A DNA stretch of 22,789 bases from the NCBI GenBank assembly GCA_965371515.1, contig CBDUYR010000045.1:1-22789 (forward strand), read 5' to 3'. This document shows, one piece after another, positions 1 through 6,008 of the stretch. Origin of the DNA: an uncultured bacterium. Lineage in GTDB: Bacteria > Krumholzibacteriota > Krumholzibacteriia > Krumholzibacteriales > Krumholzibacteriaceae. The notes beneath the pieces were generated by a model. It worked only from the letters and a program-made list of their open reading frames with translations. It had not been told where the DNA came from and made no database searches. Made by a program: the position numbers and the translations under genes. The stretch's first letter is position 1. Every line of letters begins with the position of its first letter.

Positions 1-111
1 CTGGAACAGTACTTTTACACCTTATCATACTGTCCCATTTTCGGGGTCCACTATAATACGCACGTTTACATGATTTCTAGTTATGATGAAAAGGTGGGTG
101 ATACGCCCTAG
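1..111 (+). CDS. 3' end of a hypothetical protein entering from outside the window
   Basis: Frame 1 is open from base 1 (LEQYFYTLSYCPIFGVHYNTHVYMISSYDEKVGDTP) to TAG at 109-111; the repeat at 117 follows immediately. Confidence 0.55.
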   Translation: MEQYFYTLSYCPIFGVHYNTHVYMISSYDEKVGDTP

Positions 112-116
112 ATTTT

Positions 117-143
117 CGTATAACAGAGTGTTCGTGGCTGCAG
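117..143 (+). repeat. Direct repeat copy 1, resembling an attC left half (R''/L''-like)
   Basis: CGTATAACAGAGTGTTCGTGGCTGCAG is 25/27 identical to 575-601 and starts 5 nt after a stop codon. Confidence 0.75.
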
Positions 144-213
144 GTCTGGCGACCCGGACGGTCACTTCACGGATACTCACGATGCTATCTGAAATACTGC
201 GAATAGAAAAAAA

Positions 214-260
214 TTGACCTGCGATTTTATATAACCCTATAATTCACCTCATGTTATAAT
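214..260 (+). promoter_or_regulatory. Sigma70-type promoter(s) upstream of the small lipoprotein gene
   Basis: TTGACC (214-219)-N18-TATAAT (238-243) with an upstream A-tract; a second perfect extended -10, TGtTATAAT, at 252-260. Confidence 0.6.
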
Positions 261-313
261 AGAATGATCGCAAAACTGCGGCCAGTCATGGATAGCCCTG
301 AAGAAAATCAACA

Positions 314-544
314 ATGAGGAGTGAGCTGATGCTTAGGATTCTTATTGTTATATTGGCTTTAGCCTCAATAGCGGCGTGTACAGAGACAACTACTGATAGT
401 TCAAAGAAGAAGCTTACTCAGCATGAAAGAGACAGTATCCTTGCTGAGTCGGATCTGCCGGGAGCAAACGTCGTCGGGAAGGCTATAGAAGTATCAGATT
501 CCTCGACTGCACGAGCCAAGCGGCTAGATGAGCAGTCTGACTAG
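314..544 (+). CDS. Small lipoprotein, function unknown (start 314 or 329)
   Basis: Hydrophobic N-terminus ending in the lipobox IAAC, then a short polar mature part. Confidence 0.8.
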   Translation: MRSELMLRILIVILALASIAACTETTTDSSKKKLTQHERDSILAESDLPGANVVGKAIEVSDSSTARAKRLDEQSD

Positions 545-574
545 AGTGCGAAAAGTTCTACGAGGACTGTCCTA

Positions 575-601
575 CGTATAACAAAGTGTTCGCGGCTGCA
601 G
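575..601 (+). repeat. Direct repeat copy 2, resembling an attC left half
   Basis: CGTATAACAAAGTGTTCGCGGCTGCAG, 30 nt after the stop of 314..544. Confidence 0.75.
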
Positions 602-621
602 TTCTTTGACCTTTCGCCGAG

Positions 622-1059
622 ATGACATTTGTCGCAGAGACCGCCAGAGCGTTGGAGCCTGCAATATCCTGTGATAAACGACACGTCGCATTTGTGGAGG
701 TAGAGCGTGTCGAAAAGGAGTATTTTGATACCTTATGGATCTGTAATGTCGAAAGCGGTTCTCTGGAAAAACTGTACAGAGGACCTGGAAAGGCGAAAAA
801 TCGAGGCGTAAGTGAATTGTCATGGTCTTTCGATGATTATCATATTGGAATGTTCTTTTCACCAGAGGCATTGGTGTTAGAAATTCAAAATCCAGACATC
901 ATTCATAAGGTCAGAGGAATAGATTTTAACTGGATTGGAAATAAAATGATTGTATTTACTCAAGGAAACGATATGTATCTGTATAACTTGGATACCAGAA
1001 AAAGGGAATTATTCTTGGAAGAAGCTTCAAAGCCTATGTTTTTATGGAAGAACAAATAG
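622..1059 (+). CDS. TolB/WD40-like beta-propeller protein, probably 5'-truncated
   Basis: PD40/TolB-like blades (PAISCDKRHVAFV, LWICNVESG, LSWSFDD, FNWIGNKMIVFT). No signal peptide or clear SD; in-frame TGA at 607-609 just after the repeat. Confidence 0.6.
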   Translation: MTFVAETARALEPAISCDKRHVAFVEVERVEKEYFDTLWICNVESGSLEKLYRGPGKAKNRGVSELSWSFDDYHIGMFFSPEALVLEIQNPDIIHKVRGIDFNWIGNKMIVFTQGNDMYLYNLDTRKRELFLEEASKPMFLWKNK

Positions 1060-1073
1060 GAGATAAAATCTAT

Positions 1074-1763
1074 ATGTTTAAACCAGCTGCTATTGCAATA
1101 CTAATGGGCAATATTTTACTGTTATTTAGCTCTGCCGGGCGAGTGAGCGAAGCAAACTCCTGTAAGCAATCGTCATATGATGTAATGTCTGTGCTGATTC
1201 AAGAGGAATACGGAATTGATTTCAAAATTATTCTTATCAACAGTGAAACCGAATCCTGGTGTTTAGGCACTCACCTGGACTTCCTCCAAGAACAGTGGCC
1301 AGAACTCAGAAGAGAGACAATAGATTCTCTTATAACTAGAAATAGCGGCATTTCGCAAAAGCTGGAAGCGAAATTCAAGATTTCAGTCGACTACATGCTA
1401 ATATCGGAAATCGAATACCTTGAAGCTCTTCAAGATAGTTCGGATCATTCAAAGGACAAGATATTTATGTCCAATGGGGATACCAGCCTCTCAGTTGAAG
1501 AATACGATGAAGCTTATTATGATTCGCTAATGCCCGATTGGGATAATTTCGATGAAATGCATCCAGACGCCCAAGGTTATTTAACGTTTTCCAGAGTTGG
1601 ATATGATTCGGAGTACATGCAAGCCCTGCTGATATATTCTAATGCCTATCGCTGTAGTGGAGATCGAGTGCGTCCGAAAACAAGGAAAATCGCTTACTTC
1701 AAAAAGCGTAATGGATCTTGGGAATTAGTAGGTGTTTCGCGAAGAGTATCAGCAATGTATTGA
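1074..1763 (+). CDS. Secreted hypothetical protein, paralog of 1768..2388
   Basis: AGGAG SD before ATG 1074; signal peptide; C-terminal HPDAQGYLTFSRVGYD...ALL...FKKRNGSWELVG. Confidence 0.8.
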   Translation: MFKPAAIAILMGNILLLFSSAGRVSEANSCKQSSYDVMSVLIQEEYGIDFKIILINSETESWCLGTHLDFLQEQWPELRRETIDSLITRNSGISQKLEAKFKISVDYMLISEIEYLEALQDSSDHSKDKIFMSNGDTSLSVEEYDEAYYDSLMPDWDNFDEMHPDAQGYLTFSRVGYDSEYMQALLIYSNAYRCSGDRVRPKTRKIAYFKKRNGSWELVGVSRRVSAMY

Positions 1764-1767
1764 TATT

Positions 1768-2388
1768 ATGTATCATCTGATTATGAAAATTGCTGTAACA
1801 GCGGCGATCCTCAGTATGTGCTTTCTTGGCGGCTGCGCCAAGCCGTACGCCGAGCCAAATCTTCCGTACGAAGACGAGACCGAACGAGAAGAATACTCTA
1901 TCTATTCACTCAGTATCGAGCATATCTACATGCGCAATCTGCTCTCGAATCACAAGAGCGAAATCGGGTCGATTGTCATAATCTCTGAGACAAACGAACT
2001 TATTGAGTACTGGAGGGACGAGTTTGTCGACGACATCGAGAACGAGGGTATACCGGAAAATGTTATCGAGAACTGGAGGAAGGAAAACGAATCCACAGAG
2101 TTCCTTAAGCGAAAATTCAATTTGTTATACGAGTATCATCTGGTGACAAGAACCGAACTGGATGGGATTGAAGACGTCAGTTTCTTCAGAGAGTTTTACA
2201 GGCGATATCCGGATTCAAATGGTTTGATATCGGTCTCGAAGATCGGGTTTGACAAGGCGAAGAATACGGCATTGATCCACCTGATCCACAGTTACGGCAC
2301 ACTGGGAGCGACTTACAACTTCATTCTGTTGAAGAGGACTGACGGTGCATGGGGTGTTGTGCGGAGAATATCGACTAGTGGTTTGTAG
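1768..2388 (+). CDS. Lipoprotein, paralog of 1074..1763 (start 1768 or 1783)
   Basis: Lipobox LGGC; C-terminal YPDSNGLISVSKIGFD...ALI...LLKRTDGAWGVV. Confidence 0.8.
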   Translation: MYHLIMKIAVTAAILSMCFLGGCAKPYAEPNLPYEDETEREEYSIYSLSIEHIYMRNLLSNHKSEIGSIVIISETNELIEYWRDEFVDDIENEGIPENVIENWRKENESTEFLKRKFNLLYEYHLVTRTELDGIEDVSFFREFYRRYPDSNGLISVSKIGFDKAKNTALIHLIHSYGTLGATYNFILLKRTDGAWGVVRRISTSGL

Positions 2389-2405
2389 GCTCGAGCGTGG
2401 ACTAT

Positions 2406-2449
2406 AAAAAAGTGAGGGAATATAAGGGTTGCGGGCTTATATCCCCTCA
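2406..2449 (-). terminator. Intrinsic terminator on the - strand
   Basis: 14-bp stem 2413-2426/2436-2449 with a 9-nt loop; its one irregular pair is G-U on - (A-C on +). The A6 at 2406-2411 gives the U-tract on -. Confidence 0.8.
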
Positions 2450-2623
2450 GTGCCGATTCGGATTGCAGTCAAAGAAGACAACTCAGCAACCATACTAATC
2501 GAAGGATACGTATCTTGCCATTTATAATGACTCACTATCGGTATCCTGAAGTCCCGTAAAGGGCTCTTCTCATTAATTATTAATATTTGTAGCTGCTGCC
2601 TCCTTGATTGAGACCTCATCGAC
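2406..2623 (-). ncRNA. Candidate ~215-nt structured non-coding RNA, family unassigned (possibly 6S-like)
   Basis: Bracketed by a - strand promoter (2630-2657) and terminator (2406-2449); the 5' and 3' parts pair in nested helices with many G-U pairs that work only on the - strand. Confidence 0.6.
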
Positions 2624-2629
2624 AATGAA

Positions 2630-2657
2630 AGTATAGGCGGATTATCGATTTTGTCCA
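2630..2657 (-). promoter_or_regulatory. Sigma70-type promoter for the candidate ncRNA
   Basis: TGGACA (2657-2652)-N16-TATACT (2635-2630); predicted +1 near G2623. Confidence 0.6.
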
Positions 2658-2682
2658 TGCCCGGGTTCACGCTCCGACCGGA

Positions 2683-2710
2683 TTGACAAAGACGCCGGTT
2701 GTGATATACT
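2683..2710 (+). promoter_or_regulatory. Strong sigma70-type promoter, divergent from the previous one
   Basis: TTGACA (2683-2688)-N16-TATACT (2705-2710) with an extended -10 TG at 2702-2703. Confidence 0.75.
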
Positions 2711-2794
2711 GAATACGTTCATGAAAATCAGGGAGCTGCCTGGTTCTTTCTGACAGCGACGATTGCAATTATCTAACAAAACGACTGCAGTACA

Positions 2795-3352
2795 ATGAGC
2801 TTTTTACCAATAGTAGCATTATTTGCCCTCGTATACTGGTTGAGCAACAGACTGAGCCGACCCGCCCCTCAGCCCTACGTGGAACCGAAGTACTGGGGAA
2901 TATCCATGGAGAAGCTTATCGAACTGGGCGATTCGTGCGATCTCCTGATAATCGGTCAGATTGAAAATCTCGAAAACATCGATGTCGAGAGAAACATGAT
3001 GGGGGCAAAGCATAACTTCTTAGAGGTTCATCTCGACGTAAGGGTAGAATTCCCCGAGGAAATGAAGGATGACGATGCAGTGATCAATTCCTGCCATTTC
3101 ATGCAGCAGGGCAGCCTGGGGGAGAACGCGAAATTGTCAGGACTCCACCCCGAACTGAATGACACGGTCTGTCTTGGATTGTTCATGAGATCTGAGAAGA
3201 ACGGTGTCTTCTATCTTGGATCGAACAGTCCTTTCTACAGGATCAGAAACGATGAGTGGATGCCGTACACCAGGAGAAACTGGATCGATATTATCCCAGC
3301 GGAGAAACCGATCATCGGTGATTTCACCGATTCCGGCTCAAGTATCCACTAG
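2795..3352 (+). CDS. Hypothetical protein with an N-terminal membrane anchor
   Basis: 185-aa ORF with a hydrophobic N-terminus (FLPIVALFALVYWL); no family recognised. Confidence 0.7.
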   Translation: MSFLPIVALFALVYWLSNRLSRPAPQPYVEPKYWGISMEKLIELGDSCDLLIIGQIENLENIDVERNMMGAKHNFLEVHLDVRVEFPEEMKDDDAVINSCHFMQQGSLGENAKLSGLHPELNDTVCLGLFMRSEKNGVFYLGSNSPFYRIRNDEWMPYTRRNWIDIIPAEKPIIGDFTDSGSSIH

Positions 3353-3461
3353 AGGTTCAGTCAGATTATCCATACAGTCCAAGTTTCAGTAGTAATTTCT
3401 GCGGGAATATCGTACAAGTTTTTATAAATCGAACGTGCAAGACAAAATGAAAGGAGATTTG

Positions 3462-3905
3462 ATGGCCTGCCCCGAATGTTACAGCAAGGATCCGCGAGTG
3501 ACTCCGATTCTCGATCCGGAGAGTTGTCTTACAACTCACCGGCAGTATGTCTGCTCCACCTGCGGAAGGTGCATCTGCGCGGAAGCGGATTCCCAGAACA
3601 AATACAGGATCAAGTACCCGTTCAATTCACTGGAGATAGCCAAGCTGTATCTAAGGGCCGCTGAAGCGATCTATGAGGGCCCCTGCGAGATCTACGAGAT
3701 TGAATACTCGAACGGCCGCAATCTGTACAAGATCTTTAAGAGCAAGGAGGACGTGCTCGCCTATCTTAAGAAAAACTCGATGCAGAGTTGTCCTTCGGAG
3801 GAGCCCCTGTACAGGACCAAAACGTACAAGCCGCATAACAATTCCCAGGTGAGAAAGCTCAGGGCGGACGAGATCGCGAAGTATCTCGAAGAGAAAAATG
3901 GATAG
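3462..3905 (+). CDS. Cys-rich conserved hypothetical protein, probably metal binding
   Basis: AAGGAG SD before ATG 3462; CPEC...H.QYVCSTCGRCIC and PFNSLEIAKLYLR motifs. Confidence 0.8.
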   Translation: MACPECYSKDPRVTPILDPESCLTTHRQYVCSTCGRCICAEADSQNKYRIKYPFNSLEIAKLYLRAAEAIYEGPCEIYEIEYSNGRNLYKIFKSKEDVLAYLKKNSMQSCPSEEPLYRTKTYKPHNNSQVRKLRADEIAKYLEEKNG

Positions 3906-3982
3906 CGCTGAAGAAATCGAAGAGTCTGAAGATTAAGCGTAATATCGGACGATCTGCGTCAATCCGGGCAGGATTTGATCGC

Positions 3983-4606
3983 ATGTACAGGAAGCTCGAT
4001 CTGAAGAAGGAATACCGGGAACTGTATAGTCCTCCAGGCAGGGATCCTGTGGTCGTAGATGTTCCTCCGCTGAAATATCTCATGATAGACGGAATCGACG
4101 CCGAGCCGGGGAACGAGGCCTTCCAGAACGCCATACAGGCACTCTTCAGCGTTTCATACAAGACTAAATTCATATCGAAGAAGCAGCTTGAGTCGGATTA
4201 CGTTGTTATGCCGCTGGAGGGATTATGGTGGGCGGACGATATGAACGACTTTATCGCCGGAAAGAAGAAGAACTGGCGCTGGACCCTCATGATCCTGCAG
4301 CCGGGATTAGTCACACTGGAGATGATAGACGGTGCGAAAGATGCATCGGGAGGCAAGGCGCCGGCGGATTCTCTCGAAAAGCTCCGGCTGGATGAGCTAC
4401 ACGAGGGATTATCAGCCCAGATCATGCATATCGGTCCGTATTCGGAGGAACACGGGAACATCATGAAGATCCACGAGCTCATAAGCGGTGAAGGCGGGAG
4501 CTTTGAAGGGACCGCACAGAAGCACCACGAGATCTACCTCAGTGATTTCAGAAAGACGGCGCCTGAGAAGCTTAAAACTGTTTTAAGACAGCCGTTCATC
4601 ATATAG
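3983..4606 (+). CDS. GyrI-like small-molecule-binding domain protein
   Basis: KLDLKKEYRELY, YVVMPLEGLWW, HIGPYSEE and HHEIYLSDFRKTAPEKLKTVLRQP motifs. Confidence 0.9.
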   Translation: MYRKLDLKKEYRELYSPPGRDPVVVDVPPLKYLMIDGIDAEPGNEAFQNAIQALFSVSYKTKFISKKQLESDYVVMPLEGLWWADDMNDFIAGKKKNWRWTLMILQPGLVTLEMIDGAKDASGGKAPADSLEKLRLDELHEGLSAQIMHIGPYSEEHGNIMKIHELISGEGGSFEGTAQKHHEIYLSDFRKTAPEKLKTVLRQPFII

Positions 4607-4614
4607 AATATCAC

Positions 4615-4770
4615 ATGAAGCGGATACTGCCGCTCATCCTGATCATAATGTCCCGGAAGAGGGACATCGGGGGCGTGATCCTGCACTTCGCGCTGACCCT
4701 GATACTGTTTGTCGCTGCTATTCTGACGGGAAGGCATCGGAAAAAAGACGGCGAAAAAGAAAATTTCTGA
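4615..4770 (+). CDS. 51-aa membrane mini-protein or internally deleted gene remnant
   Basis: MKRILPLILIIMSRKRDIGGVILHFALTLILFVAAILTGRHRKKDGEKENF nearly fills the gap between its neighbours; not in the ORF track. Confidence 0.55.
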   Translation: MKRILPLILIIMSRKRDIGGVILHFALTLILFVAAILTGRHRKKDGEKENF

Positions 4771-4791
4771 AGCGGGAGGGGGTAAACAGGT

Positions 4792-5358
4792 ATGACGGAC
4801 AGGAACAGGGCGATCGCCGGGTCGACGATCATTCTGTTAACGACTTTTGTATTGGGCCTTCTGCTAGCAGTGCTGCGCAAGGGCCCGAGCGCATTCTCCA
4901 ATCTTAATCTTGCCTACATGTTCATTGCCTTCTGTTTCGCAGGCGCAGCTTTCTATTCGGTCCTGAAATACCGCAGCACCCGCGATATGGTGTTTTCCGT
5001 ATTCATTGTGACGCTCGTACATCTTCTCATCTTCAGGATTACCGAGCCGAGGTACTTCATCGAGTTTTTTCTGTACTATGCGGCGCTTGGTGCCGCCGTG
5101 CTGATCTACTATAAAGCGATCGTTCCCCGCATGGGCCGGGTAAGGATCGGGAAATTCATATTGCTGGCCGTACTTATTGTGGTTATCTATTCGGCCGCGA
5201 CGGTCATCGCGTCACTCTTCTCAAGCGGCAGGAGCCTGTCGCAGAGTCTTAACGGTATAATTACCGTTCACAGCCTTACCGGTATCACACTTGGGCTCGG
5301 ACTCGAGATCGGGGAACTGCTGATAGAGAAGTTACTGTCAACGCCCCTGGAAAGATGA
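4792..5358 (+). CDS. Integral membrane protein with about 6 TM segments
   Basis: GGAGG upstream; repeated hydrophobic helices. Confidence 0.8.
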   Translation: MTDRNRAIAGSTIILLTTFVLGLLLAVLRKGPSAFSNLNLAYMFIAFCFAGAAFYSVLKYRSTRDMVFSVFIVTLVHLLIFRITEPRYFIEFFLYYAALGAAVLIYYKAIVPRMGRVRIGKFILLAVLIVVIYSAATVIASLFSSGRSLSQSLNGIITVHSLTGITLGLGLEIGELLIEKLLSTPLER

Positions 5359-5364
5359 TTGGAT

Positions 5365-6008
5365 ATGTTCGGAAACATACCGACCAGGCTTGCCAGATGT
5401 GTATCCGCGGGAATCCTGCTGGCTGTCATCATGACCATCGCCGCTCCACCGGGCGAGGCCTCGAGCCTGTTCAGCGTTGGAGCGGGACATGCCAGATTCA
5501 GAGATTCGAAGGCGTTGATCTGGGATCCCTCATGGTACCTGACCGGCACCTTCTTTTTCGATGTCAGACCGGGCCTGCAGCTCGGCCTGTCGATGAACTA
5601 CTACTTTCTTCAGCCCAGACCGGCCAGCGATTTCTTCGGGGTTGGAGTTATGTGGGAGGAACCTGAAGGCGACGGTTGGATGTTTTCCATGGTGCCGGCC
5701 GTAAGGATTCCATTTTCGCTAGGCGATGACGGATTGACGCAGGTATACCTGCAGGGCGGCATTGGATGGTACCACCTCGATATGGATTTGCTGTACTCTG
5801 GTCGTGTTCTGGTGCCTGAAGGTGAGGATATCGAAAAAAGGATCACAGCCAAATGGGACAAACCCGGGGTGGACGGAAGGTTCGGTGTTGTGACAAGGCT
5901 CAGCGGCGCCTTTTTCTGGAGATATCTCCCAGTATGAGCGTGATATTTACAGATGATGAATCTACATGGTCTTTAAATGCGTATATTGCGATGAGCATGA
6001 AGTATTAG
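5365..6008 (+). pseudogene. Outer-membrane beta-barrel protein, frameshifted at the T5 run 5911-5915
   Basis: Signal peptide and amphipathic strands (VYLQGGIGWYH). The frame stops at 5937, but another frame from 5916 reads LEISPSMSVIFTDDESTWSLNAYIAMSMKY* to 6008, supplying the last two strands and a terminal aromatic residue. Confidence 0.75.

Follow-up and report, generated by a model that had tools for sequence, protein, structure and literature searches.

The window, by which we mean the whole stretch of 22,789 nucleotides analysed here, comes from an uncultured member of Ca. Krumholzibacteriota (genome G000) and carries on its minus strand a non-coding RNA (ncRNA) gene flanked by a convergent and a divergent protein gene. 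The features of the locus are given below, where fractions of nine refer to the distinct homologues described later.

2406 to 2623, minus strand: ncRNA gene, 218 nt including the terminator; +1 predicted at G2623, both ends being placed from the promoter and the terminator.
2652 to 2657, minus strand: −35 hexamer TGGACA of a sigma-70-type promoter (TGGACA in 8/9 homologues, TAGACA in 1/9).
2630 to 2635, minus strand: −10 hexamer TATACT (TATACT or TATAAT in 9/9), behind a spacer of 16-17 nt with variable sequence.
2618 to 2623, minus strand: 5' strand of P1, pairing with 2457-2452; G009 forms its own 11-bp version with other letters (MFE prediction).
2595 to 2610, minus strand: 5' strand of P2, the long closing stem, pairing with 2482-2466; 7/16 pairs changed on both sides, 2/16 invariant.
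2570 to 2590, minus strand: variable AU-rich segment, prone to indels and in weak pairing with 2502-2492; 1/21 columns invariant, mean identity 0.53.
2548 to 2569, minus strand: hairpin P4 with a bulge on its 5' side; 14/22 columns invariant, pairs formed in 100% of cases in the model alignment.
2504 to 2546, minus strand: sequence-invariant core of P5 (2546-2540/2510-2504), an 8x6 purine-rich internal loop of fixed length and P6 (2531-2527/2521-2517).
2486 to 2491, minus strand: GGUUGC, with GUUGC (2490-2486) invariant; candidate partner of the terminator loop, complementary but not covarying.
2452 to 2482, minus strand: 3' strands of P2 and P1.
2413 to 2449, minus strand: terminator hairpin of 14 bp with a 9-nt loop (2435-2427) that holds an invariant CGCAAC (2433-2428); five relatives share 31-37 of its 37 positions with G000.
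2406 to 2411, minus strand: terminator U tract (U6), kept in the homologues together with the hairpin.
1732 to 2388, plus strand: convergent neighbour, an ORF of 218 aa, lipoprotein-like by eye and without a Pfam family; context only.
2683 to 2710, plus strand: divergent promoter TTGACA-16-TATACT of the 185-aa gene at 2795-3352; context only.

An earlier note on this DNA had proposed a transcription unit on the minus strand between 2657 and 2406, and its sequence and coordinates were found to be correct. The promoter that it named, TGGACA-N16-TATACT, is present in G000 (TGGACA at 2657-2652, a spacer of 16 nt and TATACT at 2635-2630). Since such a match is by itself at chance level, with 7 promoter-like sites in positions 1-6000 versus 9.2 in shuffled sequences, conservation across homologues is needed as support. 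Indeed, T(G/A)GACA-N16/17-TATA(C/A)T sits 6-7 nt 5' of the first G in all nine homologues, and the hexamers are thus kept although the spacer drifts. At the other end, the proposed intrinsic terminator (2449-2406) consists of the 14-bp hairpin at 2449-2413 followed by U6 and is likewise conserved in the homologues; a simple terminator scanner had overlooked it because its 9-nt loop exceeds the permitted range of 3-8 nt.

We then searched for homologues, as the same note had recommended, and recovered nine distinct sequences with conserved pairing and compensatory changes, from seven genomes in two genera of Ca. Krumholzibacteriota and two metagenome sequences. By blastn, nine of 61 genomes gave a match, of which seven were long (G000, five of the six genomes of the same genus, and G009 from a different genus) and two were short (G044 and G014); the short ones were dropped, since the covariance model gave no confirmation. 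This model, built from seven close sequences and therefore able to miss distant relatives, found the RNA in 7/61 relatives, in 7/151 genomes of the phylum (with stricter filters and 15 candidates scored per genome) and, at E<=2, in eight of 40 family genomes, the eighth being a hairpin-only match of 12.8 bits. Pattern searches gave the same count of genomes, with the P5-P6 core in 7/52 genomes of the order and the terminator in 7/208 genomes of the phylum. Scans of sequence collections returned 2 viral and 33 metagenome matches, and the covariance model confirmed 5 of these 35, three of which duplicated known sequences and were dropped, leaving two new ones. The terminator pattern gave 0 matches in the viral collection, plasmid and phage records gave none, and among the 10 matches in the genome-contig scan, the 5 outside the known set had no full-length covariance-model match. 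A search by synteny at 51 loci in other genera, centred on the lipoprotein-like gene or the CCA gene, yielded no homologue either. The RNA is single-copy in G000; in G004, the neighbour gene and the CCA gene are missing too, so that its blank is probably an assembly gap. Among the genomes searched, the RNA thus appears to be confined so far to two genera.

The predicted fold was evaluated on both strands against shuffled sequences, another check that the earlier note had suggested. As a result, the minus strand from 2623 to 2406 folded at −70.2 kcal/mol (z −4.33, 0/200 shuffles as stable), whereas the plus strand of the same stretch reached a z of only −1.14. All of the helices that had been named pair as written, and our count of 8 G-U pairs versus one A-C mismatch in these helices plus the terminator agrees with the original one. 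Without the terminator, the body gave z values of −3.4 to −5.6 in 9/9 homologues, and the RNA strand exceeded the opposite strand in 9/9. In a model-fitted alignment of the nine homologues, 93.7% of 504 cells were paired, versus 35-43% in slid controls, and seven pairs showed two-sided changes, a number reached in 0/500 shuffles; a plain MAFFT alignment gave the same seven pairs (1/500 shuffles). All of the two-sided changes lie within P2 (2610-2595/2482-2466) and most are contributed by G003 and G009; this structural evidence comes from only nine sequences that are related to one another. What is conserved in the closing stem P2 is its shape alone, its sequence being free.

Two of the proposed helices fared less well. 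The upper register 2598-2590/2492-2484 pairs in 88.9% of cells and in eight of the nine sequences, but it shows no two-sided change and fails in G009, the two-sided changes being found in the shifted register 2601-2595/2482-2476. The AU-rich helix 2585-2579/2499-2493 pairs in G000, but it belongs to the most variable stretch, which is prone to indels, and G009 lacks it; the centre of the G009 RNA is predicted as an open junction. The three-way junction with hairpin P4 recurs in 9/9 predicted folds. The invariant helices P4-P6 show no covariation, and it is folding energy and constant pairing that support them.

A comparison of codons with base pairs, also proposed at the outset, showed that the homologues conserve base pairs and no reading frame; no ORF is common to all nine. 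As for expression, 8 of the 10 metatranscriptome RNA runs listed contain part of the stretch, four of them with small shares that count as no evidence, and the relatives' copies occur in RNA libraries of all four studies compared, as unstranded contigs with no DNA control. In run X1, two contigs, each from a different relative, are contained entirely in the gene (2441-2610 and 2451-2607) with no loose ends, while the X4 and X6 contigs extend 83 and 57 letters past the terminator. Since the contigs show neither strand nor ends, they are evidence of presence in RNA libraries only, and transcription of the minus strand from 2623 to 2406 is a prediction. The X3 contig (2287-2467, strand not given) includes the complete terminator hairpin together with the end of the convergent gene; the mRNA of that gene may thus extend, in antisense, into the RNA locus.

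The neighbourhood of the RNA differs between the two genera. The 218-aa ORF adjoins it in all six genomes of genus g1 that have the RNA, but lies elsewhere in G009. The region of the divergent promoter aligns in G005, G006 and G003, where the 185-aa gene follows, but not in G002, G001 and G009. Within genus g1, the convergent lipoprotein-like gene is constant and the divergent genes vary. In G009, the RNA lies between genes for a CCA-type nucleotidyltransferase and a FadL-like protein, and only one of 30 CCA loci, that of G009, has a FadL-like gene beside the CCA gene. With two unrelated gene neighbourhoods, the RNA is independent of either. A tree of the CCA genes (30 rows, five shorter matches left out) placed G009 and g1 in a poorly resolved clade (22% of bootstrap trees), which is compatible with inheritance of the RNA from a single ancestor but does not demonstrate it. 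At the G009 locus (L008 1110-1455), the RNA and the FadL-like gene stand upstream of the CCA-type gene, where family members carry other genes, which would reflect a local rearrangement or an insertion.

The conserved order of promoter, RNA and terminator, the conserved fold, the missing coding signal and the independence of neighbours make this almost certainly a real, stand-alone ncRNA gene, and the unit is demonstrably under strong purifying selection. The original proposal of an unannotated, self-contained ncRNA, possibly of a new class, is thus borne out by its own promoter and terminator, compensatory structure, lack of conserved codons, lack of an Rfam match and two genomic contexts. 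Indeed, Rfam 15, the 6S model included, gave no match over the RNA when positions 1-6000 of the window were scanned. Rfam searches on seven short loci returned two chance eukaryotic matches of 14-15 bits, far below the cut-off. SRP, tmRNA and 6S genes are present elsewhere, which argues against a replacement of these housekeeping RNAs; contig C59 carries a motif that resembles RNase P RNA.

We compared the RNA with other known classes of structured RNA. Bacterial Y RNAs occur in genomes with a Ro60/TROVE gene, which is usually adjacent, retron ncRNAs are co-transcribed with a reverse transcriptase gene downstream, and CsrB/Rsm sponges occur with CsrA and carry GGA in hairpin loops. The new RNA resembles Y RNA and retron msr-msd RNA in its paired 5' and 3' ends and internal stem-loops. 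However, no Ro60/TROVE protein (PF05731) was found in G000, which is 99.6% complete, and the downstream gene is convergent and is not a reverse transcriptase gene, none of which lies beside the RNA; reverse transcriptases (PF00078) occur in three of five carriers, on other contigs and never at the RNA locus. The RNA also contains GGA words, but these are located in stems, and no CsrA (PF02599) was found in G000. Hfq was likewise not found in this genome, and ProQ was found in 0/5 genomes. RRM proteins occur in 5/5 genomes, carriers and non-carriers alike. Since a Bacteroides RRM protein binds single-stranded parts of sRNAs (PMC11697453, excerpt), RRM proteins are candidate partners for the AU-rich stretch only. 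The closest working analogy, without homology, is the raiA motif RNA, an orphan structured ncRNA whose conserved core is closed by a P1 helix and which is known from more than 2700 species, has two pseudoknots and, according to a section heading, is bound by KhpA/KhpB (PMC12968392, excerpt). Unlike raiA RNA, the new RNA is known from seven genomes, has one candidate loop contact, and has a closing stem that is variable.

The distribution of invariant positions is uneven. Pairs that never vary make up 15/20 in P4-P6 versus 2/22 in P1-P2 (Fisher p 2e-5, a value that is overstated because the sequences are related), and 13/14 stem columns of P5 and 9/10 of P6 are invariant. Conservation sits in the helices, the single-stranded AU-rich part being excluded as the most variable. 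In the terminator loop, 6/9 columns are invariant. While the terminator keeps 31-37 of its 37 positions, four-fold sites of the CCA gene are identical to those of G000 at 35-43% in four relatives and at 66% in G005, the closest one. The apical P4-P6 domain and the terminator hairpin keep their sequence even where synonymous sites are saturated. It is an odd pattern that a terminator is more conserved than the body of the RNA and that core helices are frozen at such distances, and it suggests either a partner that recognises specific sequence or a tertiary contact. The most conserved parts suggest protein binding or a folding of the RNA back on itself.

Concerning the latter, GUUGC and the loop CGCAAC, which are the two longest unpaired stretches free of variation, are complementary. 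A duplex of 6-7 bp is possible in every homologue, with −10.0 kcal/mol in eight sequences and −12.3 kcal/mol in G009, where one flanking pair is lost and another gained, and freeing the GUUGC strand costs 0.2-4.3 kcal/mol. The chance complementarity of a random 5-mer and 6-mer is 0.002, or 0.016 with G-U pairs, in a test that was chosen post hoc, after the match had been seen. No covarying pair links the two segments among the nine homologues, and GGUUGC has an alternative partner within the stem in eight of nine sequences, its unpaired status being dependent on the register chosen. A kissing contact of 6-7 bp between the terminator loop and GUUGC, which shows no covariation, is thus a tentative proposal that we regard as somewhat less probable than its absence. 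P5 (2546-2541/2509-2504) and the terminator stem (2445-2440) also share the word GGAUAY, and the 3' strand of P5 could pair with the 5' arm of the terminator; the shared word may mark a binding site that occurs twice, or it may permit a second pairing that would account for the invariance. Part of the terminator, from its loop into the 3' arm (2437-2422, minus strand), resembles what we take to be a stretch of the 3' major domain of 16S rRNA, probably by chance; a probe for that stretch gave no match in the G000 assembly.

We favour the reading that this is a new lineage-restricted RNA family acting via a folded, protein-bound surface, a view to which we assign about an even chance. The housekeeping polymerase would make an RNA of ~218 nt, in which the ~30-bp closing stem would pair both ends and form a handle, free in sequence, by which the RNA is shielded and its top presented. 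The functional surface would consist of P4-P5-P6, the domain of invariant sequence, and of the 3' hairpin. This hairpin would act in termination and in recognition alike, and the loop contact may bring it onto the GUUGC strand. The RNA would then be a folded ligand, as a decoy or a scaffold, for a specific protein that it sequesters or scaffolds, with no mRNA pairing involved. The invariance of P4-P6 and the hairpin could also stem from alternative pairings or from a pairing partner in trans.

Among the rival explanations, a decoy of RNA polymerase (RNAP), in which the closing stem and an AU-rich bubble would imitate an open promoter, be it in a second and divergent 6S RNA or in the manner of Ms1/CoRP, is unlikely. 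The earlier note had offered a resemblance to 6S RNA with a hedge, and this suggestion did not survive comparison. Like 6S RNA (RF00013, including B. subtilis 6S-1/6S-2), the new RNA is ~200 nt long with its own gene, and its ends pair in a long irregular stem around an AU-rich, weakly paired centre; its body of ~175 nt and the open junction of G009 fit a decoy as well. 6S RNA is an unbranched rod with a central bubble between two irregular stems, and is functionally defined by sigma-dependent binding of the RNAP holoenzyme, use as a pRNA template and release on pRNA synthesis; second 6S RNAs exist, and Rfam-based identification of 6S RNA is called tentative (PMC10578484, excerpt). The new RNA, in contrast, has a branched top with an extra hairpin and an invariant, attached terminator hairpin, and its would-be bubble is its least conserved part, with 1/21 columns invariant, whereas the central 5' segment of the lineage's own 6S RNA is invariant in 6/6. 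Furthermore, RF00013 detected canonical 6S RNA elsewhere in 6/6 carriers tested (66-82 bits), but gave no match at E<=10 at the locus of the new RNA in G000 and the five other carriers, and nhmmer searches of the six 6S RNAs of the lineage with the nine new RNAs, and the reverse, gave no match. By these sequence comparisons, the RNA is not 6S. Ms1 and CoRP are lineage-restricted, structured RNAs other than 6S that bind RNAP (PMC11077062, excerpt), and they share with the new RNA the narrow range and the structured, non-6S character, although the latter has no Rfam match.

A base-pairing sRNA acting in trans, with the exposed, invariant, C-rich terminator loop as its seed, seems improbable. OxyS pairs with fhlA through its terminator loop, and a plain terminator loop need not be as invariant as the present one. 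The loop sequence is also reported to matter beyond termination in OxyS, SdsR, RseX and ArrS (PMC11979758, excerpt), and RRM proteins, which bind sRNAs in Bacteroides (PMC11697453, excerpt), are present. However, those sRNAs belong to enterobacterial hosts that contain Hfq, whereas the new RNA is almost wholly paired, its frozen P4-P6 domain would be left unexplained, Hfq (G000) and ProQ (0/5) were not found, and no mRNA target emerged: at 2516 crude ORF starts of G000, the loop complement was observed 40 times versus 46.9 in shuffles, and the best duplexes between loop and target did not surpass those obtained with shuffled segments (crude gene calls from a single genome). An RNA-only machine, in which the terminator loop would kiss GUUGC of another copy to form dimers or rings, or would close a compact ligand-binding tertiary fold, is rather improbable. 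It would account for the complementarity of the invariant unpaired runs (−10.0 to −12.3 kcal/mol), and oligomers and cages are known to be formed by short RNAs in nature (bioRxiv 10.64898/2026.07.01.735769, excerpt; see also PMC12286853), but it has to contend with the lack of a covarying pair, the post hoc test and the register-dependent unpaired state, and a contact in cis would require a sharp bend between P1 and P2, where no conserved kink motif is apparent. That the locus is a cis element, serving as a terminator, switch or attenuator for its neighbours or as an antisense RNA against the convergent gene, is very unlikely. The X3 contig contains the hairpin along with the end of the convergent gene, and two others pass the terminator; nevertheless, every homologue has a convergent gene downstream, which is not the same one in g1 as in G009, no riboswitch family matches, and a nested antiterminator, rejected as unlikely, would cost 14-31 kcal/mol to force. 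Finally, an mRNA for a small protein or a type I toxin is highly implausible, even though type I toxin mRNAs are typically structured, with their ends paired, and an 18-codon frame from 2493 is open in 7/9 homologues. This frame is cut to 9 codons in G003 and has no start in G009, its changes at codon positions 1/2/3 number 6/7/3, with eight non-synonymous codons versus one synonymous-only codon, and no Shine-Dalgarno-like sequence precedes it by eye; the other candidate, a 60-codon frame from 2619, is open in 2/9.

Besides the favoured reading of a protein-bound surface, a bolder combination is conceivable, if fairly unlikely. The RNA might be a compact class that recycles its intrinsic terminator as a structural domain, the loop kissing GUUGC in cis or between copies and thereby locking a tertiary fold or an oligomer that would present the invariant three-helix head to a partner, possibly RNAP in a non-6S manner, in a phylum without Hfq, CsrA, ProQ and Ro60 where tested.

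The RNA is a new family of a known kind, the stand-alone structured bacterial ncRNA, and is missing from Rfam 15. Within the literature consulted, we found no report of an ncRNA from Krumholzibacteria or of a matching novel motif in candidate phyla; an earlier unnamed prediction, for instance in a supplementary motif table, is conceivable. A well-supported structured RNA family is thus added from a little-known, uncultured candidate phylum, although its narrow range of seven genomes and its missing partner limit its general weight for now. Since the size of 218 nt makes in vitro synthesis feasible, its structure, oligomer state and polymerase binding can be tested without culturing the host.

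Several minor observations were made in the same genome. The canonical 6S RNA of G000 lies at L001 1501-1687 (G000:C16:16398-16584) with 74.7 bits, between ORFs that, named by eye, presumably correspond to zapB-zapA and rny. Three reverse transcriptase genes, with open frames of 436-478 aa, were found on the very short contigs C153, C148 and C125 (L128, L131 and L132). Upstream of the RNA gene's convergent neighbour, the ORF at 1044-1763 (plus strand) appears to be its distant paralogue: neither has a Pfam family, and the former matches the G006 orthologue of the ORF at 1732-2388 with 31% identity over 72 aa, while the latter has weak relatives in 10 other family genomes. On the other side, the 156-aa ORF at 3435-3905 (plus strand) has no Pfam family but several CxxC pairs, is 80% identical in G006 and is usually followed by a GyrI-like gene; it may encode a zinc-binding protein.
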